Below are positions 7,878 to 33,603 of a stretch of DNA of 64,000 nt, in pieces. Under the pieces are notes generated by a model. It searched no databases. It had not been told where the DNA came from and saw only the letters and a program-made list of their open reading frames with translations. Source of the stretch: a virus; the IMG/VR virus record IMGVR_UViG_3300027754_000044, one strand, 5' to 3'. How positions within the stretch are numbered: position 1 is the stretch's first letter; each line of letters opens with the position of its first letter. The translations under genes and the position numbers were made by a program.

Positions 7878-9235
7878 AGGAAGTCTAACACATTTACGTT
7901 TTCGCTTTTAGATACTTTAGCTGCTTCTTCTGCAAATCCATTATTGCTTAGATAATCTGACCACTCTTTTGTTTCCCACATTCCAGCTGAGACTCCATTC
8001 CAACCTTCATGCCATTCCTCATGATCTTTATTATCTTTTCTTGTGTAAACAAATTTCCTGCGAAGATTTTCTTGTTCGACAGAAGAACAATTTATCATAG
8101 ATGATCTGAAATACATTACGACGGAAATTCTTTCAAATCCTTCATCAGATGAAATCAGAGGAACGTTGCCATGGATTTGATGAGCATCCATAAGCAATAG
8201 ATCTCCAGGTTTCACATCTACGCAGACTTTATACTCAGGCATGCAGAGATACATACCATCAAAGTTCTTTCCGTCACTCAATACTGTAAGATTGCTGAAT
8301 CCTGCTGGAGCATTGATTCGTTCTGTTTCACATAAATCTCCGGCATCTCGGTGACAAGCTGTTCTGAAATCTTTATTGATCGTTATAGTTGTGTAAACTG
8401 AATTACCAATACGCCAGCCAGTATCTTTCAGTTGCTTGACGGATTCATTCTGTCCATTCCATCTAATCGGAAAGTTGTCTTTAAAAACTTTAGACGCTGC
8501 TTCGAATAGAGGATATCCTTTTTGAAACAGATCTGGATTTGCGGCACTCCAAGCAGTTTCTCTGCAAAAAGGAATACGAGGATAGCGATCAAAATATCCA
8601 GCAGTTCCAGAATATACAGAATTACCATAAGATGTATCTGATATCAACTTGCGAACTTCTATTGCAGCCTGCTTTCTTTCTTTCCTAGATAATTGTCTAG
8701 TCGTTTCTACCCATTGTGTGAAATCAAATTCTGCAGTTTTCTTTACTATCCATATTGCTCCGCCTTTAATATTGCCACCACCAGCAGCACCACGACCTTC
8801 TAATGGTTCATTAGGCGTTTCACGTAGGATATCATCTAGCTGATCTGTTCCAGATGCAGATATTGGAGAACCCGCTAGAAAGTAATTGATGATTGCTTTT
8901 TCTAGCTTAGTGATCCATCTGCGTTTCCCATGTCCAGTATCAGTCGGCATTATCTGGAACTCATCACGATGAGTTCCTGCGGCAAGACCACGATTGTCAG
9001 ATTGACTAGCACCTTCGCGCAATCCGATATATGCCGGATCAGTAATGCTCTTAGGAAATACGTTCTTACGAAACTTCAATAGACAATTATTCTCGTGTGG
9101 ACTTTCACCTGGGCCCAAAGGCTTATACACATCGCAATCTTCATTAACAATATAATTGTATGCGTCGTGCTCTAGAAATTTACCTAATAGATGCTCACAG
9201 TCAATCTGCTCTGTCAATATTATCTGCTTTGTCAT
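7874..9235 (-). CDS. TET/JBP-family 2OG-Fe(II) 5-methylpyrimidine dioxygenase
   Basis: SGTAGYFDR..CRETAW, YTTITINKDFRTACHRDAGD (HxD), LLMDAHQIHGN, RISVVMYFR; matches the JBP1 oxygenase motif order. Confidence 0.85.
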   Translation of the reverse strand: MTKQIILTEQIDCEHLLGKFLEHDAYNYIVNEDCDVYKPLGPGESPHENNCLLKFRKNVFPKSITDPAYIGLREGASQSDNRGLAAGTHRDEFQIMPTDTGHGKRRWITKLEKAIINYFLAGSPISASGTDQLDDILRETPNEPLEGRGAAGGGNIKGGAIWIVKKTAEFDFTQWVETTRQLSRKERKQAAIEVRKLISDTSYGNSVYSGTAGYFDRYPRIPFCRETAWSAANPDLFQKGYPLFEAASKVFKDNFPIRWNGQNESVKQLKDTGWRIGNSVYTTITINKDFRTACHRDAGDLCETERINAPAGFSNLTVLSDGKNFDGMYLCMPEYKVCVDVKPGDLLLMDAHQIHGNVPLISSDEGFERISVVMYFRSSMINCSSVEQENLRRKFVYTRKDNKDHEEWHEGWNGVSAGMWETKEWSDYLSNNGFAEEAAKVSKSENVNVLDFL

Positions 9236-9250
9236 AATATAATTCCAATG

Positions 9251-9850
9251 TTATTGTGTATCTTTATGTATGTTCAATTTTAGAGTTCTGTATGGTATTG
9301 TGAAAATATTTTTTGCACCAATTGGGACTTTCGGAAATAGATCTTCAAGAACAAAAATAAAAACAACATCTTTATTTTTTCTTGCAAACCATTCTAGATA
9401 ACGAATTCGACCAGCATTATCTTCTACTTGCGCACGAGTTTCTGGACCATAGTTTGCAGTTCCGGCAAACAGATTTGAGCAGGAAAAATGATTATCATTA
9501 ATCAAAAAATCAAATCCTAGACATATGAGCACATTATAATTTTTTTCTATTGCGCGCTGCATAGCATACATCCCAGAATTATTTCTAGGATATCTGTTTC
9601 TGCCTGGATGCATATCTGCTGGTTCGTATTCTTCAGCTTTTGATCTAGGAAATAATGTATACTCTACAGGAAAATCAGAAGCACTGATCTCATCCATCAT
9701 TCCCTGATCAACAGCAACCAACCAGTCTGGTTTGAATGTTCTATAGAGGGCATTACATCCAAATATCGGAGATACACCATTAATAGAACTTAGGTCAAAG
9801 TTTTTTCGACTCTCACCATTCCCTATGATGAAAGCTGTATTGTTGCTCAT
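9251..9850 (-). CDS. MAF/DUF115-like Rossmannoid protein (sialyltransferase-like fold)
   Basis: AFIIGNGESR...IFGCNALYR...LVAVD...NSG..A...LGFDF. Confidence 0.65.
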   Translation of the reverse strand: MSNNTAFIIGNGESRKNFDLSSINGVSPIFGCNALYRTFKPDWLVAVDQGMMDEISASDFPVEYTLFPRSKAEEYEPADMHPGRNRYPRNNSGMYAMQRAIEKNYNVLICLGFDFLINDNHFSCSNLFAGTANYGPETRAQVEDNAGRIRYLEWFARKNKDVVFIFVLEDLFPKVPIGAKNIFTIPYRTLKLNIHKDTQ

Positions 9851-10281
9851 TTTTTCCAGTTTGCGGTTAGATTAGGAAATGCGGCTTTTACAGCATCCAT
9901 CTTAACCTTTAGGCCGCGATTTTTCATACGAAGAACCAACTGCGCATCATGCACATCTAAAACCTCGAGCATTTGAATAAACATCTGTTCGCGTTTTAGA
10001 TTCGATATCCTTCGTCCATCTGGTGAATCTACAAAGTAGATAAACTTTCGATGTTCAGCCACCAGGCGACCGTGTGCATCTGATCCTTCTGGCATTGGAC
10101 GAAACGGAGGATCTGTTTCTGGAAGAAGGAATTTAACGCCGGGATCCATTCCATATCCAATGATAGCTTTCAACGCAGCGGATGCATATTTCTTTAGAAG
10201 TTTAGTCTGTGCTGCAGAAGTTTTTTGTTTCTCAATCTCATCAATAATTTCAGCCATACTTTTAGTCATATAAATCTCCAC
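9847..10281 (-). CDS. conserved T4-like phage protein (DUF6433-like)
   Basis: LLPETDPPF...KREQMFIQMLE; position next to rnh. Confidence 0.7.
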   Translation of the reverse strand: MEIYMTKSMAEIIDEIEKQKTSAAQTKLLKKYASAALKAIIGYGMDPGVKFLLPETDPPFRPMPEGSDAHGRLVAEHRKFIYFVDSPDGRRISNLKREQMFIQMLEVLDVHDAQLVLRMKNRGLKVKMDAVKAAFPNLTANWKK

Positions 10282-30255: not shown

Positions 30256-30331
30256 TGGTAGTAATGGTTGGACTCAAACCAACGATCTTTTCCGTATGAA
30301 GGAACTGCATTAGTCACTATGCTACATTACC
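30256..30331 (-). tRNA. tRNA-Met(CAU), elongator (Ile2 not excluded)
   Basis: Loop TT-CAT-AC; CCA. Confidence 0.8.
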
Positions 30332-30496
30332 ATAAGAAACTGCACTGGCAGGTGGGGTATCCAGCTAGTCAAGATGTCTACTATCCTGAAATCATCGCTT
30401 GCCCATCCTCCTTTTCTCCGCTGCAGGCGGAGTTACGAGCATATCTCCTCGAGAAAATATGAACGTATCTTTCCTTACCAATGCAGTTACTTATGG
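30330..30496 (-). ncRNA. closing-helix RNA cassette 1 (candidate ncRNA)
   Basis: CCA-UAAGUAACUG-CAUU-GGUA ... UGCC-AGUG-CAGUUUCUUA-UGG, about 20 bp; internal hairpin CUCCGC/GCGGAG. Confidence 0.65.
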
Positions 30497-30570
30497 TGCC
30501 CCAGAGGAGACTCGAACTCCTAAAATTCGGCTTCTAAGACCGACACGTATGCCAATTCCGTCACCGGGGC
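30494..30570 (-). tRNA. tRNA-Leu(UAG), short variable loop
   Basis: Loop CT-TAG-AA; 77 nt; CCA. Confidence 0.9.
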
Positions 30571-30572
30571 TT

Positions 30573-30647
30573 TGGTAGAAGTTAAAGGGATTGAACCTTT
30601 GACCTTCGCCTTGTAAGGGCGTTGCTCTACCGCTGAGCTAAACTTCC
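30573..30647 (-). tRNA. tRNA-Val(UAC)
   Basis: Loop CT-TAC-AA; CCA. Confidence 0.9.
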
Positions 30648-30653
30648 ATATAA

Positions 30654-30728
30654 TGGTGGAGATGGAGAGAATCGAACTCTCAATTTCTGGTTGCAAACCA
30701 GATGTGTTCCCATTAGCACTACACCCCC
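30654..30728 (-). tRNA. tRNA-Ala(UGC)
   Basis: Loop TT-TGC-AA; G3:U70; CCA. Confidence 0.9.
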
Positions 30729-30744
30729 AAATACTGAATTACTA

Positions 30745-30831
30745 TGGTGCAAGTGGCGGGAATCGAACCCGCATGCCCTTGCGAGCGAGAGATTTTAAGT
30801 CTCTTATGTATACCTGTTCCATCACACTTGC
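30745..30831 (-). tRNA. tRNA-Leu(UAA)
   Basis: Loop CT-TAA-AA; long variable arm; CCA. Confidence 0.9.
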
Positions 30832-30836
30832 AATTC

Positions 30837-30912
30837 TGGTCGGTGTGGAGAGTTTCGAACTCCCGACCTCATGGTCCCAAACCACGCACTCTACCAGCTG
30901 AGCTACACACCG
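30837..30912 (-). tRNA. tRNA-Pro(UGG)
   Basis: Loop TT-TGG-GA; CCA. Confidence 0.9.
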
Positions 30913-30920
30913 AAAAATAC

Positions 30921-30999
30921 TGGTTGCGGAGGCAGGATTCGCACCTGCGATCTCCAGCTTATGAGGCTGGCGGGGACGACTGGGCTCCCCTACTCCGCG
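30921..30999 (-). tRNA. tRNA-fMet(CAU), initiator-like
   Basis: Loop CT-CAT-AA; C1:A72 mismatch; CCA. Confidence 0.85.
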
Positions 31000-31006
31000 A
31001 TCGTTC

Positions 31007-31081
31007 TGGCTCCTCGACGTGGGATCGAACCACGGACCAATTGATTAACAGTCAACTGCTCTACCGCTGAGCTATCGAGGA
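31007..31081 (-). tRNA. tRNA-Asn(GUU)
   Basis: Loop CT-GTT-AA; CCA. Confidence 0.9.
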
Positions 31082-31088
31082 ATAAATC

Positions 31089-31181
31089 TGGTGGAAGCAA
31101 CTGGAGTCGAACCAGTAATGTTTACCCTGAGGGATCGGATTTACAGTCCGAGGATGCACACGCCGTAGCATCAATACTTCC
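31089..31181 (-). tRNA. tRNA-Tyr(GUA)
   Basis: Loop CT-GTA-AA; long variable arm; CCA. Confidence 0.85.
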
Positions 31182-31772
31182 GAATAAAATTCGTTTTGCT
31201 TCATCATAATACATAGATCCAGGATTTTCAACTCTTAATGTAAGTATCACACGAGGATTAGATGAGTTTGTATTATCCCACGAATGAAACATCTCTGTGT
31301 TAAATAACAAACACTCATTTGGTTGTGCTATCATAATTTTGTTCGCAGGAGGTAATTTTTTACCTTTGGTTACCAATTTTCTTGAGTAATGATCAAATTC
31401 TCTTTCCCAACCTTCAAAAGATTCATCACACCACCACTGAGTGATACATTTTTCATCGAGTATTTTGATAGGAATATTAATACTAAATCTATGATCACAC
31501 GAATCCTTATGAACTCTAGAGCCACCGTTTGGCCGCGTGCTAAAAAATGCAACTCGATCTTTTATAAAATCAAATTTATTGTTCATAGGGAGATGTTTTA
31601 TGATTTTATTTGCAGTTTCAACATCAAAATTAATATGATCGTATGTTGAGCCTTTTCGAATATTGCTATTATCGAGTGATTGCTGACTTATAAAATTAAT
31701 TACATCTGATAATCCATCCCAGGTAAATCTCACATAATATGGACTGCAGTCTTCGATTATAGTGTAATCCAT
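31122..31772 (-). CDS. cupin/2OG-Fe(II) oxygenase-like protein within the tRNA array
   Basis: VHKD...SINIPI...LFNTEMFHSWDN...RVILTLR; SD AAAGGA; last 20 codons (incl. stop) lie in tRNA-Tyr. Confidence 0.75.
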   Translation of the reverse strand: MDYTIIEDCSPYYVRFTWDGLSDVINFISQQSLDNSNIRKGSTYDHINFDVETANKIIKHLPMNNKFDFIKDRVAFFSTRPNGGSRVHKDSCDHRFSINIPIKILDEKCITQWWCDESFEGWEREFDHYSRKLVTKGKKLPPANKIMIAQPNECLLFNTEMFHSWDNTNSSNPRVILTLRVENPGSMYYDEAKRILFGSIDATACASSDCKSDPSG

Positions 31773-31789
31773 TTATAATCCTTTATGTT

Positions 31790-31864
31790 TGGTGCCCGAT
31801 GTCTGGATTGAACAGACGACCTGCCGCTTACAAGGCGGCTGCTCTGCCACTGAGCTAATCGGGC
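31790..31864 (-). tRNA. tRNA-Thr(UGU)
   Basis: Loop CT-TGT-AA; CCA. Confidence 0.9.
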
Positions 31865-31880
31865 GTTGTATTCAGTTACT

Positions 31881-31909
31881 ATTATACTCGCCATTGACTT
31901 AAAAGGCAA
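31881..31909 (-). promoter_or_regulatory. internal promoter of the tRNA array
   Basis: TTGCCT-17-TATAAT, 16 nt upstream of tRNA-Thr. Confidence 0.7.
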
Positions 31910-31918
31910 GCATTATTT

Positions 31919-31996
31919 TGGAAGTGAGGGTCGGATTCGAACCGACGATTTTAGAGTTTTGCAGGCTCTTGCATTTGACCACTCTGCCACCCCACT
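31919..31996 (-). tRNA. tRNA-Cys(GCA)
   Basis: Loop CT-GCA-AA; U73; CCA. Confidence 0.85.
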
Positions 31997-32136
31997 AATT
32001 CTTCAATTCTATTGGCCGCTTCTTCTAACAAATCTGCAATTCTATCTGGTGCATTTTCTTGCACAGACTTTCTTGTAGAAATCTGCCTACGAATTTCGGC
32101 TCGTTTTCGTAACCGATAAATTAAATCTTCATCCAT
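31951..32136 (-). CDS. small conserved phage protein (LRKRAEIRRQI..RKSVQE..PDRIADLLEEAA)
   Basis: SD GGAG; C-terminus reads into tRNA-Cys. Confidence 0.7.
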   Translation of the reverse strand: MDEDLIYRLRKRAEIRRQISTRKSVQENAPDRIADLLEEAANRIEELVGWQSGQMQEPAKL

Positions 32137-32169
32137 AAAAACTCCATATCATCCATAAAAACTCCATAT
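32130..32169. repeat. 20-bp perfect tandem duplication covering RBS and start codon
   Basis: CATCCATAAAAACTCCATAT x2. Confidence 0.9.
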
Positions 32170-32170
32170 T

Positions 32171-32266
32171 TGGTACTCCCCGAAGGTTTCGAACCTTCCC
32201 GTTCCAGCCTATCTGACCAGTCTCCACGCTTTATAAGGGCATGCCGCACGCCGAGTGCTGGGGAGC
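32171..32266 (-). tRNA. class II (long variable arm) tRNA-Ile(UAU)
   Basis: Acceptor GCTCCCC/GGGGAGT; loop CT-TAT-AA; T-arm GAAGG-TTCGAAA-CCTTC; minimal D-loop; CCA. Confidence 0.7.
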
Positions 32267-32280
32267 AAAACTTTTAATTT

Positions 32281-32375
32281 TGGCGGAGAATATTGGATTC
32301 GAACCAATGGACCGAACTCATCGCCCGGTCGGCGGTTTAGCAAACCGCAGCCTTCGACCACTCAGCCAATTCTCC
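32281..32375 (-). tRNA. tRNA-Ser(GCU)
   Basis: Loop TT-GCT-AA; long variable arm; CCA. Confidence 0.9.
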
Positions 32376-32384
32376 TGTAATTCT

Positions 32385-32460
32385 TGGCGACTCGTAGGGG
32401 TTTCGATCCCCTTACCTCATGCGTGACAGGCATGTGCTCTCCCGATTGAGCTAACGAGCC
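32385..32460 (-). tRNA. tRNA-Asp(GUC)
   Basis: Loop CT-GTC-AC; CCA. Confidence 0.9.
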
Positions 32461-32464
32461 GAAA

Positions 32465-32630
32465 ATTGTAGAGTCGCAGTTTCTAGGCCCGACCCAATGG
32501 ATAGTCTCTACTATCGCCATAGTGAACATTTTTCGCAAACTGTATTGATTAATTTGCAGGTTCGTTAAACCTTCAGTGGGCACAAATATCCCATTTCGGG
32601 AATCCCCAATCGGAGCATTCTTTGGCGCCA
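32465..32630 (-). ncRNA. candidate multibranched structured RNA between tRNA-Ser(UGA) and tRNA-Asp
   Basis: Nested helices CGCCA/UGGCG, UCCC/GGGA, GAAC/GUUC, GCAAA/UUUGC, GUAGAG/CUCUAC. Confidence 0.45.
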
Positions 32631-32634
32631 ACTC

Positions 32635-32724
32635 TGGCGGAAGCGGTGAGATTCGAACTCACGGACCCTTGCGGGCCGCTAGTTTTCAAGACTAGTGCCT
32701 TAACCCAGGCTCAGCCACACTTCC
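32635..32724 (-). tRNA. tRNA-Ser(UGA)
   Basis: Loop CT-TGA-AA; long variable arm; CCA. Confidence 0.9.
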
Positions 32725-32733
32725 TTATCCTAA

Positions 32734-32813
32734 CATATGGAAACACACTGCCTCTCTTTGTAGTCGGAGCCCATGGAAAGAATTCGCCCCATCGGCAATG
32801 TGTTTTCATATGG
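32734..32813 (-). ncRNA. closing-helix RNA cassette 2 (candidate ncRNA)
   Basis: CCA-UAUGAAAACA-CAUU-GCC ... GGC-AGUG-UGUUUCCAUA-UG. Confidence 0.65.
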
Positions 32814-32887
32814 TGGGAGTGGTAGGAATCGAACCTAACTCTTAGCGGATTAAAAGTCCGTTGTGCAAGCCTTTACACCACACTCCC
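32811..32887 (-). tRNA. tRNA-Lys(UUU)
   Basis: Loop CT-TTT-AA; CCA. Confidence 0.9.
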
Positions 32888-32919
32888 TATGTCTTGCGTG
32901 TTTTGGATTTTCGCTTCAT
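32887..32919 (-). CDS. 10-aa mini-ORF MKRKSKTRKT
   Basis: SD AAAGGA 7 nt before ATG; the G of its TAG is G1 of tRNA-Lys. Confidence 0.45.
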   Translation of the reverse strand: MKRKSKTRKT

Positions 32920-32950
32920 ACAATTTCCTTTCTGTTAAATTAAAATTTTT

Positions 32951-33026
32951 TGGTAGGGGATACAGGGATCGAACCTGTGTATGACGGAATCAAAATCCGT
33001 TGCCTTACCATCTTGGCTAATCCCCA
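32951..33026 (-). tRNA. tRNA-Gln(UUG)
   Basis: Loop TT-TTG-AT; CCA. Confidence 0.9.
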
Positions 33027-33033
33027 ACAATTC

Positions 33034-33107
33034 TGGGGCGGCTAGAGAGAATCGAACTCTCGTCCTGAGCTTGGAAGGCTCTCATTCTACCATTGAACTA
33101 CAGCCGC
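33034..33107 (-). tRNA. tRNA-Gly(UCC)
   Basis: Loop CT-TCC-AA; CCA; C73 is atypical. Confidence 0.85.
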
Positions 33108-33118
33108 ATTACTAATTC

Positions 33119-33204
33119 TGGTGAAGCATACTGGAATCGAACCAGTGTAGGAAAGTCACTTTATGTGTCTGGGCTACCAACAGCGCCTCTACTCCCAATG
33201 CTTC
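33119..33204 (-). ncRNA. tRNA-like RNA: acceptor stem, T-arm and CCA, no canonical D/anticodon arms
   Basis: GAAGCAU/AUGCUUC-A-CCA; ACUGG-UUCGAUU-CCAGU. Confidence 0.7.
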
Positions 33205-33327
33205 ATATTAGATCATACTCAATAATTCCTTAATGCTGGCACACTAAGTTTTCGCACCCTGCCAGGGGCACCGAATTCAGCTACGCCGAGAGCTTTGCCA
33301 AACCCGTCGAATATGATTTAATATGAA
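33202..33327 (-). ncRNA. closing-helix RNA cassette 4 (candidate ncRNA)
   Basis: UCA-UAUUAAAUCA-UAUU-C ... G-AGUA-UGAUCUAAUA-UGA. Confidence 0.65.
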
Positions 33328-33440
33328 CCATATTGAAGCACACTCTGCAGGAATCGAACTCTGCCAACTCAGCACCTAGACGCCAAGCTATCAACCATTA
33401 TATCTGCGTGGCCTACGCATTTGAATGTGCTTCAATATGG
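33328..33440 (-). ncRNA. closing-helix RNA cassette 3 with T-loop (candidate tRNA mimic)
   Basis: CCA-UAUUGAAGCA-CAUU-C ... G-AGUG-UGCUUCAAUA-UGG; contains GCAG-A-GUUCGAUUC-CUGC. Confidence 0.7.
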
Positions 33441-33513
33441 CGTCCTGTAGGGGATTCGAACCCACTCTTGCCACCTTGAAAGGGTGGTGACCTCACCAGA
33501 AGTCAAACAGGAC
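33438..33513 (-). tRNA. tRNA-Glu(UUC)
   Basis: Loop CT-TTC-AA; CCA. Confidence 0.9.
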
Positions 33514-33574: not shown

Positions 33575-33603
33575 ATTATATACCATGTTTCGCTAAATGG
33601 CAA
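33575..33603 (-). promoter_or_regulatory. promoter of the tRNA array
   Basis: TTGCCA-17-TATAAT-GGTTGT. Confidence 0.8.

Follow-up and report, generated by a model that had tools for sequence, protein, structure and literature searches.

A common closing helix with exchangeable cargo in a phage tRNA array

The tRNA array of the IMG/VR virus record IMGVR_UViG_3300027754_000044 contains four segments in which two distant arms can pair with each other in nearly the same way, and the question is why one type of helix should close RNAs that otherwise have nothing in common. We analyzed the stretch of 64,000 nucleotides that holds the array, here called the window. A sequence-only reading had described the segments as RNA cassettes, and its coordinates for the helices, on the strand of the tRNAs, were confirmed, except that the ends of the fourth were shifted by 1 nt (33326-33203 rather than 33327-33202).

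All four cassettes are located on the minus strand. Cassette c3 (33440-33328, 113 nt) starts on the CCA of tRNA-Glu (33513-33438, minus), for which the Rfam tRNA match covers 33441-33513, so that the CCA at 33440-33438 provides the first three pairs of the stem. It consists of a 5' arm (33440-33423), a cargo (33422-33346) and a 3' arm (33345-33328), all on the minus strand, and 18 of its 18 stem positions are paired. Cassette c4 (33326-33203, 124 nt) abuts c3 directly, with no preceding tRNA; its arms, UCAUAUUAAAUCAUAUUC and GAGUAUGAUCUAAUAUGA, pair at 17 of 18 positions, and the final 2 nt of the 3' arm overlap the start of a tRNA-like RNA at 33204. Cassette c2 (32813-32733, 81 nt) starts on the CCA of tRNA-Lys(UUU) (32811-32887, minus, ARAGORN), which forms the base of the stem, and encloses a cargo of about 45 nt; position 8 of its stem is an A.C mismatch. 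Cassette c1 (30496-30330, 167 nt) likewise has at its base the CCA on which it starts, that of tRNA-Leu(UAG) (30494-30570, minus, ARAGORN). Its arms, CCAUAAGUAACUGCAUUGG and CCAGUGCAGUUUCUUAUGG, pair over 19 bp around a cargo of 133 nt, with U.U at position 8 of the stem, and its 3' arm overlaps G1-G2 of tRNA-Met (30331). Thus, the opening CCA is a tRNA 3' end in three cassettes (Leu, Lys and Glu), and the helix covers the 5' end of the next RNA in two (c1 and c4), as the sequence-only reading had it. A promoter-like site, TTGCCA-17-TATAAT (11/12; 33575..33603, minus), was identified by a consensus scan ahead of tRNA-Glu and is likely to be the start of an array transcript that includes c3, c4 and c2. 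Just before this site lies a hairpin of the upstream gene that resembles a terminator.

The stems in the window are all 18 to 20 bp long and have a common register, YCAUA-NNN-AA-NNNN-AUU / AGU-NNNN-U(U/C)-NNN-UAUGR, with the same wobble pair, U16.G16', in each of them and a defect at position 8 or 9 (U.U, A.C, G-C and A.C). Folding of the entire cassettes gave z-scores of -5.6, -3.5, -4.6 and -5.4 for c1 to c4, and 0 of 200 shuffles folded equally well. The interiors were mutually unrelated and fell into separate BLAST clusters, as had been claimed. That they are structured held only in part: covariation argues for it in c1, as compared with a close relative, and in the family of the c3 cargo, which resembles a tRNA and has a degenerate T-arm, but folding of the cargo alone does not (z-scores of -1.4, -0.7, +0.9 and -1.2 for c1 to c4).

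The close relative, L081, contains a near-identical array that illustrates how the cargo is exchanged. In its slots after tRNA-Glu and tRNA-Lys, the stem has been kept at 83% to 94% identity between flanking tRNAs that are 97% to 100% identical (100% for tRNA-Lys), and the cargo is unrelated, which supports the proposal of a cassette family with a common closing helix and exchangeable cargo. Cassette c4 is absent from this array. Cassette c1 is 89% identical to L081:10758-10924, and the differences include 4 double compensatory changes, which are located in its internal helices. No close cultured relatives were found: a megablast search with the array matched tRNA fragments only, and the DNA ligase was at most 37% identical to that of any cultured phage. 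An ORF in the array (31122-31772) had no relatives in IMG/VR.

The sequence-only reading had recognized no named family. Consistent with this, no family in Rfam 15 matched a cassette or its cargo in the window, either at the gathering score or at E<=10; searches of fourteen cassette-rich loci returned tRNA, tmRNA and group I introns only, and at E<=10 on locus L166 there was no match to any cassette. A full-text literature search did not find a description of the element, although one may exist.

How widespread is the helix? Two scans identified at least 294 copies of the stem in at least 173 phage loci in IMG/VR. In contrast, a search of 185,579 species genomes of bacteria and archaea gave only 7 matches, all of them in MAG contigs. 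Much of the apparent conservation of the stem sequence is a product of the search pattern used, and stems enclosing a cargo of more than about 95 nt were sampled by a custom script only. Divergent CCA-anchored stems are also present in the same arrays. The carriers are uncultured, mostly freshwater phages, in which the cassettes are located inside tRNA operons with up to 6 per array. Among the matches listed, stem length peaked at 18 to 20 bp (median 20), 170 of 294 cassettes started exactly on a tRNA CCA, and 62 of 294 ended at, or at most 2 nt into, the next tRNA. The stems were preferentially associated with tRNA-Lys, tRNA-Glu and tRNA-Gln, and 70% of the tRNA-Lys(UUU) genes carried such a stem (family-wide, among the matches listed). 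A pure processing role does not account for this preference, part of which may be due to common ancestry of the arrays.

Variable inserts flanked by inverted repeats might also be DNA elements with MITE-like ends, or an attC-like recombination site, and such an origin would fit with the swapping of cargo between relatives and with the finding of the same cargo family behind different tRNAs. The pattern of substitutions in the arms argues against it. Among the matches listed, the 5' arm covaried with its own 3' arm across the family: at least 8 of the 10 unforced positions were paired in 222 of 273 raw pattern matches, and all 10 were paired in 89, as compared with 9.8 expected when the partner arms were shuffled. 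Wobbles at the unforced positions 11-14 and 18 were strand-specific, with 147 G.U versus 6 A.C, and a position-8 mismatch was present in 37% of the copies (both among the matches listed). The covariation that had been predicted among homologs was therefore observed, with shuffled partners falling far short, and from covariation and strand-specific wobbles we conclude that the pairing of the stem is kept at the RNA level. The placement of the cassettes points in the same direction. They are always oriented like the tRNAs (2345 tRNAs within 1.5 kb on the same strand versus 161 on the opposite strand, among the matches listed), and in two complete cassette-bearing genomes the pattern occurred on the forward strand only and within the array only. 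There is no direct target duplication, since the CCA...UGG is inverted and part of the helix, and unlike MITEs, the cassettes of one genome do not share a conserved interior. Strand-specific wobbles and placement in arrays only, on the tRNA strand, thus disfavor a DNA-level element, which we consider extremely improbable.

The cargo is as diverse as the stem is uniform in its pairing. Among the matches listed, 269 unique cassettes fell into at least 179 sequence clusters, with cargo sizes of about 30 to 130 nt and up to about 180 nt. As a class, the cargo exceeds random sequence in stability only slightly (mean z-score of -0.58, as compared with -1.67 for tRNAs and -0.33 for random segments). 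This weak folding signal, the extreme diversity, and differences in presence or absence between close relatives, such as the absence of c4 from L081, are what would be expected if the cassettes were selfish or neutral passengers, similar to intervening sequences (IVSs), that are excised by RNase III and discarded with a functionless cargo. However, cargo families are 80% to 93% identical between loci of which otherwise only about 1% to 9% can be aligned, and compensatory changes were found in cargo families A1, A2 and A4. The family of the c3 cargo, which is common to loci L103, L221, L293 and L168, has a variable internal hairpin that covaries. The GC content of the cargo is 48.6%, about 10 points above the 39% of the loci. 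About 13% of the cargos, including that of c3, contain a T-arm, a 13-fold enrichment among the matches listed (34 observed versus 2.6 expected), and the T-loop was the only motif found to recur across clusters. A functionless passenger is very unlikely given these observations. The cargo of some families is structured, as judged by covariation, whereas cargo overall is not, as judged by folding energy.

If not a DNA element, what would the helix do in the transcript? Bacterial RNase III acts on duplexes that are some two helical turns long, and the stem probably marks where the long transcript gets cut. We infer the cleavage, its site and what becomes of the cargo as follows. The cassettes would be co-transcribed with the tRNAs of the array, and the 3' CCA of the upstream RNA together with the next ~15 nt would pair with ~18 nt located before, or just overlapping, the next RNA to form a helix of ~18 to 20 bp. 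RNase III, a double-strand-specific enzyme that the host is assumed to have, would cut this two-turn duplex a few base pairs above the CCA. The sequence-only reading had likened the stems to a half-site consensus for E. coli RNase III and predicted a cut about 4 nt after the CCA that would leave 2-nt 3' overhangs. The cut would open the upstream tRNA to 3' trimming back to its CCA, make the leader of the tRNA that follows accessible to RNase P, and free the cargo with a residual stem of ~11 to 13 bp that could shield its ends. The conserved arms and the flanking tRNAs would also provide homology for cargo swaps between phages. We put the chance that the cassettes are stem-closed small RNAs of this kind, with RNase III freeing the tRNA ends and releasing a clamped cargo, at about even. 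Positions 3-10 of the stem are rich in A-U, with invariant A9-U and A10-U pairs near the predicted cut, although the boxes of an RNase III site can be placed only relative to a cut site. As described in a previous study, RNase III favors AU/UA pairs in the proximal box beside the cut, with AU/UA at positions 2 and 4 and no GC antideterminants (PMC3074117).

Alternatively, the stem may be an end clamp that is not cut by RNase III. The cargo would then be freed by the tRNA enzymes, with RNase P acting at the next tRNA and an endonuclease or exonucleases acting on the upstream CCA side ("tRNA punctuation"), and the stem would only protect its ends. For the 62 of 294 cassettes (among the matches listed) that end at or near the next tRNA, RNase P alone would leave a near-blunt hairpin. 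Furthermore, the cultured phages DLP6, BUDD, VH7D and DSS3P8 process tRNA arrays without such stems, and no phage-encoded RNase III was found in the two complete cassette-bearing genomes. A Pfam scan of 20 proteins from the window did not identify RNase III, Ro60 or RtcB. On the other hand, 18 to 20 bp is more than a clamp needs, and stems of this length are RNase III substrates in most bacteria. In addition, with the upstream CCA and the leader of the next tRNA both hidden in the stem, 3' exonucleases and RNase P would be expected to act poorly as long as the duplex stays closed. We therefore consider a clamp alone possible but rather unlikely.

A dedicated phage nuclease or binding protein might also read the stem, including its U.G pair and position-8 defect. 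One candidate is a DUF458/YkuK RNase H-like protein encoded within the arrays. Of the genes in the window, its gene was by far the most often shared with cassette loci (48 of 171, among the matches listed), and it was located within 100 nt of an upstream same-strand tRNA in 47 of these 48. Both complete cassette-bearing genomes contain it, and by inspection its four invariant acidic residues (D32, E65, D111 and D153) fit an RNase H-type D-E-D-D site. However, the gene is also present in the tRNA arrays of DLP6, BUDD, DSS3P8 and VH7D, which have no such stems, and it therefore accompanies tRNA arrays in general rather than the cassettes in particular; we rejected it as a stem-specific reader. 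The existence of divergent stem sequences also speaks against any dedicated reader, which we regard as improbable.

Beyond cleavage by RNase III, the stem could be the "socket" of a phage small-RNA platform. Hundreds of swappable cargos, some of them tRNA mimics, would be placed behind tRNA-Lys, tRNA-Glu and tRNA-Gln, exchanged via the arms, and act as decoys or inhibitors of host defenses that target tRNAs, or of other factors, with their diversity reflecting an arms race. These three tRNAs have thiolated wobble uridines and are targets of anticodon nucleases. We think this broader scenario unlikely as a whole, and roles of the cargo as decoys, antitoxins or sponges are speculative. If the stems are processing sockets, phage tRNA arrays would not serve codon supply alone. 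As operons, they would give rise to a large set of so far uncatalogued small RNAs, with at least 179 sequence clusters, and would represent a new layer of phage-host biology, a new source of structured RNAs, and a model from nature for how small RNAs with protected ends can be expressed within tRNA operons. For annotation, a CCA plus ~15 nt that pairs with a segment 30 to 180 nt downstream may serve as a signature in stretches that are now left blank or miscalled as ORFs.

Several known systems resemble the cassettes in part. The YrlA Y RNAs (RF02553), which are bound by Ro60/Rsr, also have a long stem formed by their 5' and 3' ends plus a tRNA-like domain, but most cassette cargos are not tRNA-like. 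RF02553 matched no cassette even at E<=10, with sub-threshold matches on tRNAs only, and TROVE/Ro60 (PF05731) was absent from 5 cassette-bearing contigs, 2 of which are complete genomes, in searches that detected the controls; we therefore rejected this identity. Species 1 and 2 of T4 (rnaC and rnaD) are small stable non-tRNA RNAs that are co-transcribed with phage tRNAs, and the T-arm of rnaC (CCGGGUUCGAAUCCCGG) and the ACCA end of rnaD are features also seen in some of the cassette modules. However, they have no 18-20-bp closing helix, and the upstream CCA is unpaired in folds with flanks (L336:1405-1552 and L336:1550-1680). They were rejected because of this difference in architecture; a phage DNA search found no similarity between them and the window beyond tRNAs. 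The hairpins in the early transcripts of T7 and T3 likewise punctuate a polycistronic phage transcript and are cut by the host RNase III, as the cassettes would be, but they are located between mRNAs, have short tops without a cargo RNA, and are not anchored on a tRNA CCA. The RNase III stems of rRNA operons and the IVSs of 23S rRNA share with the cassettes a long helix of about two turns in which the two flanks of the RNA to be released pair with each other; the former are also part of a polycistronic stable-RNA transcript that carries tRNAs, and the latter are sporadic insertions with variable tops. Unlike in these systems, the helix of the cassettes starts precisely at the CCA with which the preceding RNA ends, be that RNA a tRNA or another. 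Cleavage of this helix is predicted, and it encloses small (30 to 180 nt), hyper-diverse cargos, with up to 6 cassettes per array.

The 24-25 tRNA genes of the window, identified with ARAGORN and Rfam tRNA matches, make up a minus-strand operon (33513-29680). A promoter-like site found in a consensus scan (33603-33575, minus strand) lies ahead of it, and directly after the last tRNA comes a DUF458/YkuK RNase H-like gene (29670-29185, minus strand; Pfam PF04308). The source is an uncultured large phage. A comparison with 50,697 phage records gave no near DNA match beyond tRNA fragments, and the DNA ligase of the phage shares no more than 37% identity with that of any cultured phage.

Sequence reading and folding confirmed the four closing helices that the sequence-only reading had claimed in this array, all on the minus strand, at 30496-30330 (c1), 32813-32733 (c2), 33440-33328 (c3) and, directly after c3, 33326-33203 (c4). 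The four stems indeed share one register, YCAUA-N3-AA-N4-AUU / AGU-N4-U-N4-UAUGR, and the U.G wobble, which lies at position 16; their arms differ compensatorily outside the fixed positions, as had been claimed, and a defect at either position 8 or position 9 is common to them. The described CCA openings correspond to the first three pairs of c1, c2 and c3, which involve the CCA of tRNA-Leu(UAG), tRNA-Lys(UUU) and tRNA-Glu, respectively, and the two helices said to cover the 5' end of the next RNA are c1 and c4, the 3' arms of which overlap its first two nucleotides. The whole cassettes folded far better than shuffled sequences (z -3.5 to -5.6), a signal that came mainly from the stems. For the enclosed interiors, or cargos, alone, the z-scores were -1.4, -0.7, +0.9 and -1.2 for c1 to c4. 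The claim that the interiors are structured was only partly borne out: it agrees with internal compensatory changes in c1, as compared with the close IMG/VR relative L081, but not with the weak cargo-only scores.

Searching IMG/VR in two scans with a two-arm pattern of 18 bases, and then applying our own filter, yielded at least 294 stems in at least 173 loci, with up to 6 per locus among the matches listed; all counts from this search are minima. The raw matches were bimodal, with at least 8 of the 10 positions not forced by the pattern being paired in 222 of the 273 listed, and perfect pairing at these positions was seen in 89 of the 273, as compared with 9.8 when the partner arms were shuffled. 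Stem lengths peaked at 18-20 bp. Wobbles at the unforced positions 11-14 and 18 were G.U in 147 cases and A.C in 6, with position 8 as an exception (G-C 110, A.C 92, A-U 52). The tRNAs within 1.5 kb of the stems were on the same strand in 2345 cases and on the opposite strand in 161, and in two complete phage genomes of 214 and 329 kb the pattern occurred solely within the tRNA array and solely on its strand. The pairing of the stem acts at the RNA level, and that it should instead belong to a DNA element is very improbable. A stricter pattern gave only 7 stretches in 185,579 prokaryotic species (one genome each), all of which were short contigs or contigs from freshwater MAGs. The cassette family is real, and its stem is widespread and phage-specific. 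Because many conserved stem positions were fixed beforehand by the search pattern, and because divergent stems that likewise start on CCA were found in the same arrays, the architecture more than the sequence is constant.

Altogether, 170 of the 294 listed stems began precisely at the CCA of a tRNA called by ARAGORN, and most others came after further RNAs ending in NCCA. The stem ended at, or at most 2 nt into, the next tRNA in 62 of the 294, mostly Met and His. When tested without bias from every tRNA CCA, stems followed tRNA-Lys(UUU) in 70%, Lys(CUU) in 51%, Glu(UUC) in 44% and Gln(UUG) in 30% of cases against a background of about 5%, counts that are not independent because the arrays share ancestry.

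The arrays also contain further unnamed CCA-ended RNA families. A recurrent non-tRNA module was located just upstream of cassettes at six loci (L095, L102, L148, L154, L158 and L167); it ends in ...GGGAUUCC...CAGCAACACUG..ACCA, and its CCA is the base of the next stem. In the window, two CCA-ended tRNA-like RNAs not called by ARAGORN (33119-33204 and 32171-32266, minus strand) each have a perfect acceptor stem and T-arm and an aberrant interior. The 96-nt RNA at 32171-32266 is almost unchanged in L081 (about 9884-9979), and the 86-nt RNA at 33119-33204 is replaced there by a different tRNA-like RNA (about 9083-9210). A non-tRNA spacer of ~166 nt without a cassette stem separates tRNA-Ser(UGA) from tRNA-Asp (32465-32630, minus strand); the matching L081 slot holds a different, shorter sequence (about 9585-9690) that ends in a T-arm and CCA. 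The spacer before tRNA-Lys (32888-32950, minus strand) is nearly identical to L081:9371-9432 and holds a Lys/Arg-rich mini-ORF of 10 codons, which together with its SD-like sequence is letter-for-letter the same in both phages. It was also noted that group I introns (RF00028) reside inside cassette-bearing arrays (L095:926-1123 and L159:13185-13378). Permuted, two-piece tmRNA genes were seen in relatives of the window phage (L175:6826-7224; L082-L086 and L092); the one in L175 scores as the Betaproteobacteria type, a hint at the group to which the host belongs. Of the 7 bacterial-genome matches, two were contigs assigned to the bin of a Polynucleobacter MAG. Among cultured phages, a variant of the element was seen solely in Synechococcus phage BUCT-ZZ01 (L325:5978-6100). 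Its stem, ACCAUAUUAAAGCAUGCUUG / CAAGCAUGCUUUAAUAUGGU, is a perfect helix of 20 bp around an interior of about 83 nt, starts like the family consensus and adjoins a tRNA-like RNA.

Comparison with L081 showed that cargos are exchanged between phages. Its tRNA array is syntenic with that of the window, and its neighboring Gcw_chp protein is 82% identical. Between the two phages, identity is 97-100% for the flanking tRNAs and 83-94% for the arms, which show compensatory changes, whereas the slots after tRNA-Glu and tRNA-Lys hold unrelated cargos. Cassette c1 is retained (89% identity) and shows four double compensatory changes within its internal helices; c4 is absent from the L081 array.

Among the matches listed, 269 unique cassettes fell into at least 179 BLAST clusters, and one cargo family can occur behind different tRNAs. 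Cargo families show compensatory changes and are 80-93% identical between loci of which the other DNA is about 1-9% alignable. The cargo GC content is 48.6%, as compared with 39% for the loci. As a class, the cargos exceed random segments only slightly in folding stability (mean z -0.58 versus -0.33; tRNAs, -1.67). A passenger resembling the 23S rRNA intervening sequences, with a cargo devoid of function, is an explanation to which we give little credence. The only motif common across clusters was the T-loop, present in 34 cargos from 25 clusters, where 2.6 were expected, and frequently placed 4-8 nt ahead of the 3' arm; the c3 cargo belongs to a tRNA-like family with this motif. The same cargo contains a promoter-like match, TTCAAA-17-TATAAT (10/12; 33397-33425, minus strand), a consensus match only, in a region where such sites are no more numerous than in shuffled sequences. 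No named family had been recognized by the sequence-only reading, and the Rfam search of the window and of cassette-rich loci likewise matched neither cassettes nor cargos; no description of the element was found in Rfam 15 or the searched literature.

Neither Ro60/TROVE nor RNase III was encoded by five cassette-bearing contigs, two of which are complete genomes. The DUF458 gene was present in both complete genomes and embedded in the arrays of 48 of 171 cassette loci, within 100 nt of an upstream tRNA in 47 of the 48; the homologs in these 48 loci show 57-75% identity. Its invariant acidic residues (D32, E65, D111 and D153) look like an RNase H-type site. More distant homologs (39-60%) were located in or beside the arrays of the cultured phages DLP6, BUCT-ZZ01, BUDD, DSS3P8 and the KVP40-like VH7D. 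Since the gene is also found in arrays of cultured phages without the stems, it accompanies tRNA arrays in general, a linkage of which no description was found in the searched literature. That a dedicated phage protein reads the stem seems improbable to us.

We propose that a perfect duplex, about 20 bp long, sequesters the CCA on its upstream side together with the leader that follows, and that host RNase III, which favors A-U pairs adjoining the cut (PMC3074117), would cut this duplex, thereby freeing the tRNAs and releasing a stem-clamped small RNA. A stem that serves only as a clamp, without an RNase III cut, is rather unlikely, albeit the most plausible of the alternatives. A YrlA/Ro60 reading was rejected, as both the YrlA and the Ro60 tests failed. 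The closest known systems are YrlA, a bacterial Y RNA bound by Ro60, the T4 stable RNAs rnaC and rnaD, which lack the closing helix of the cassettes, and the processing stems of rRNA operons together with the 23S rRNA intervening sequences.
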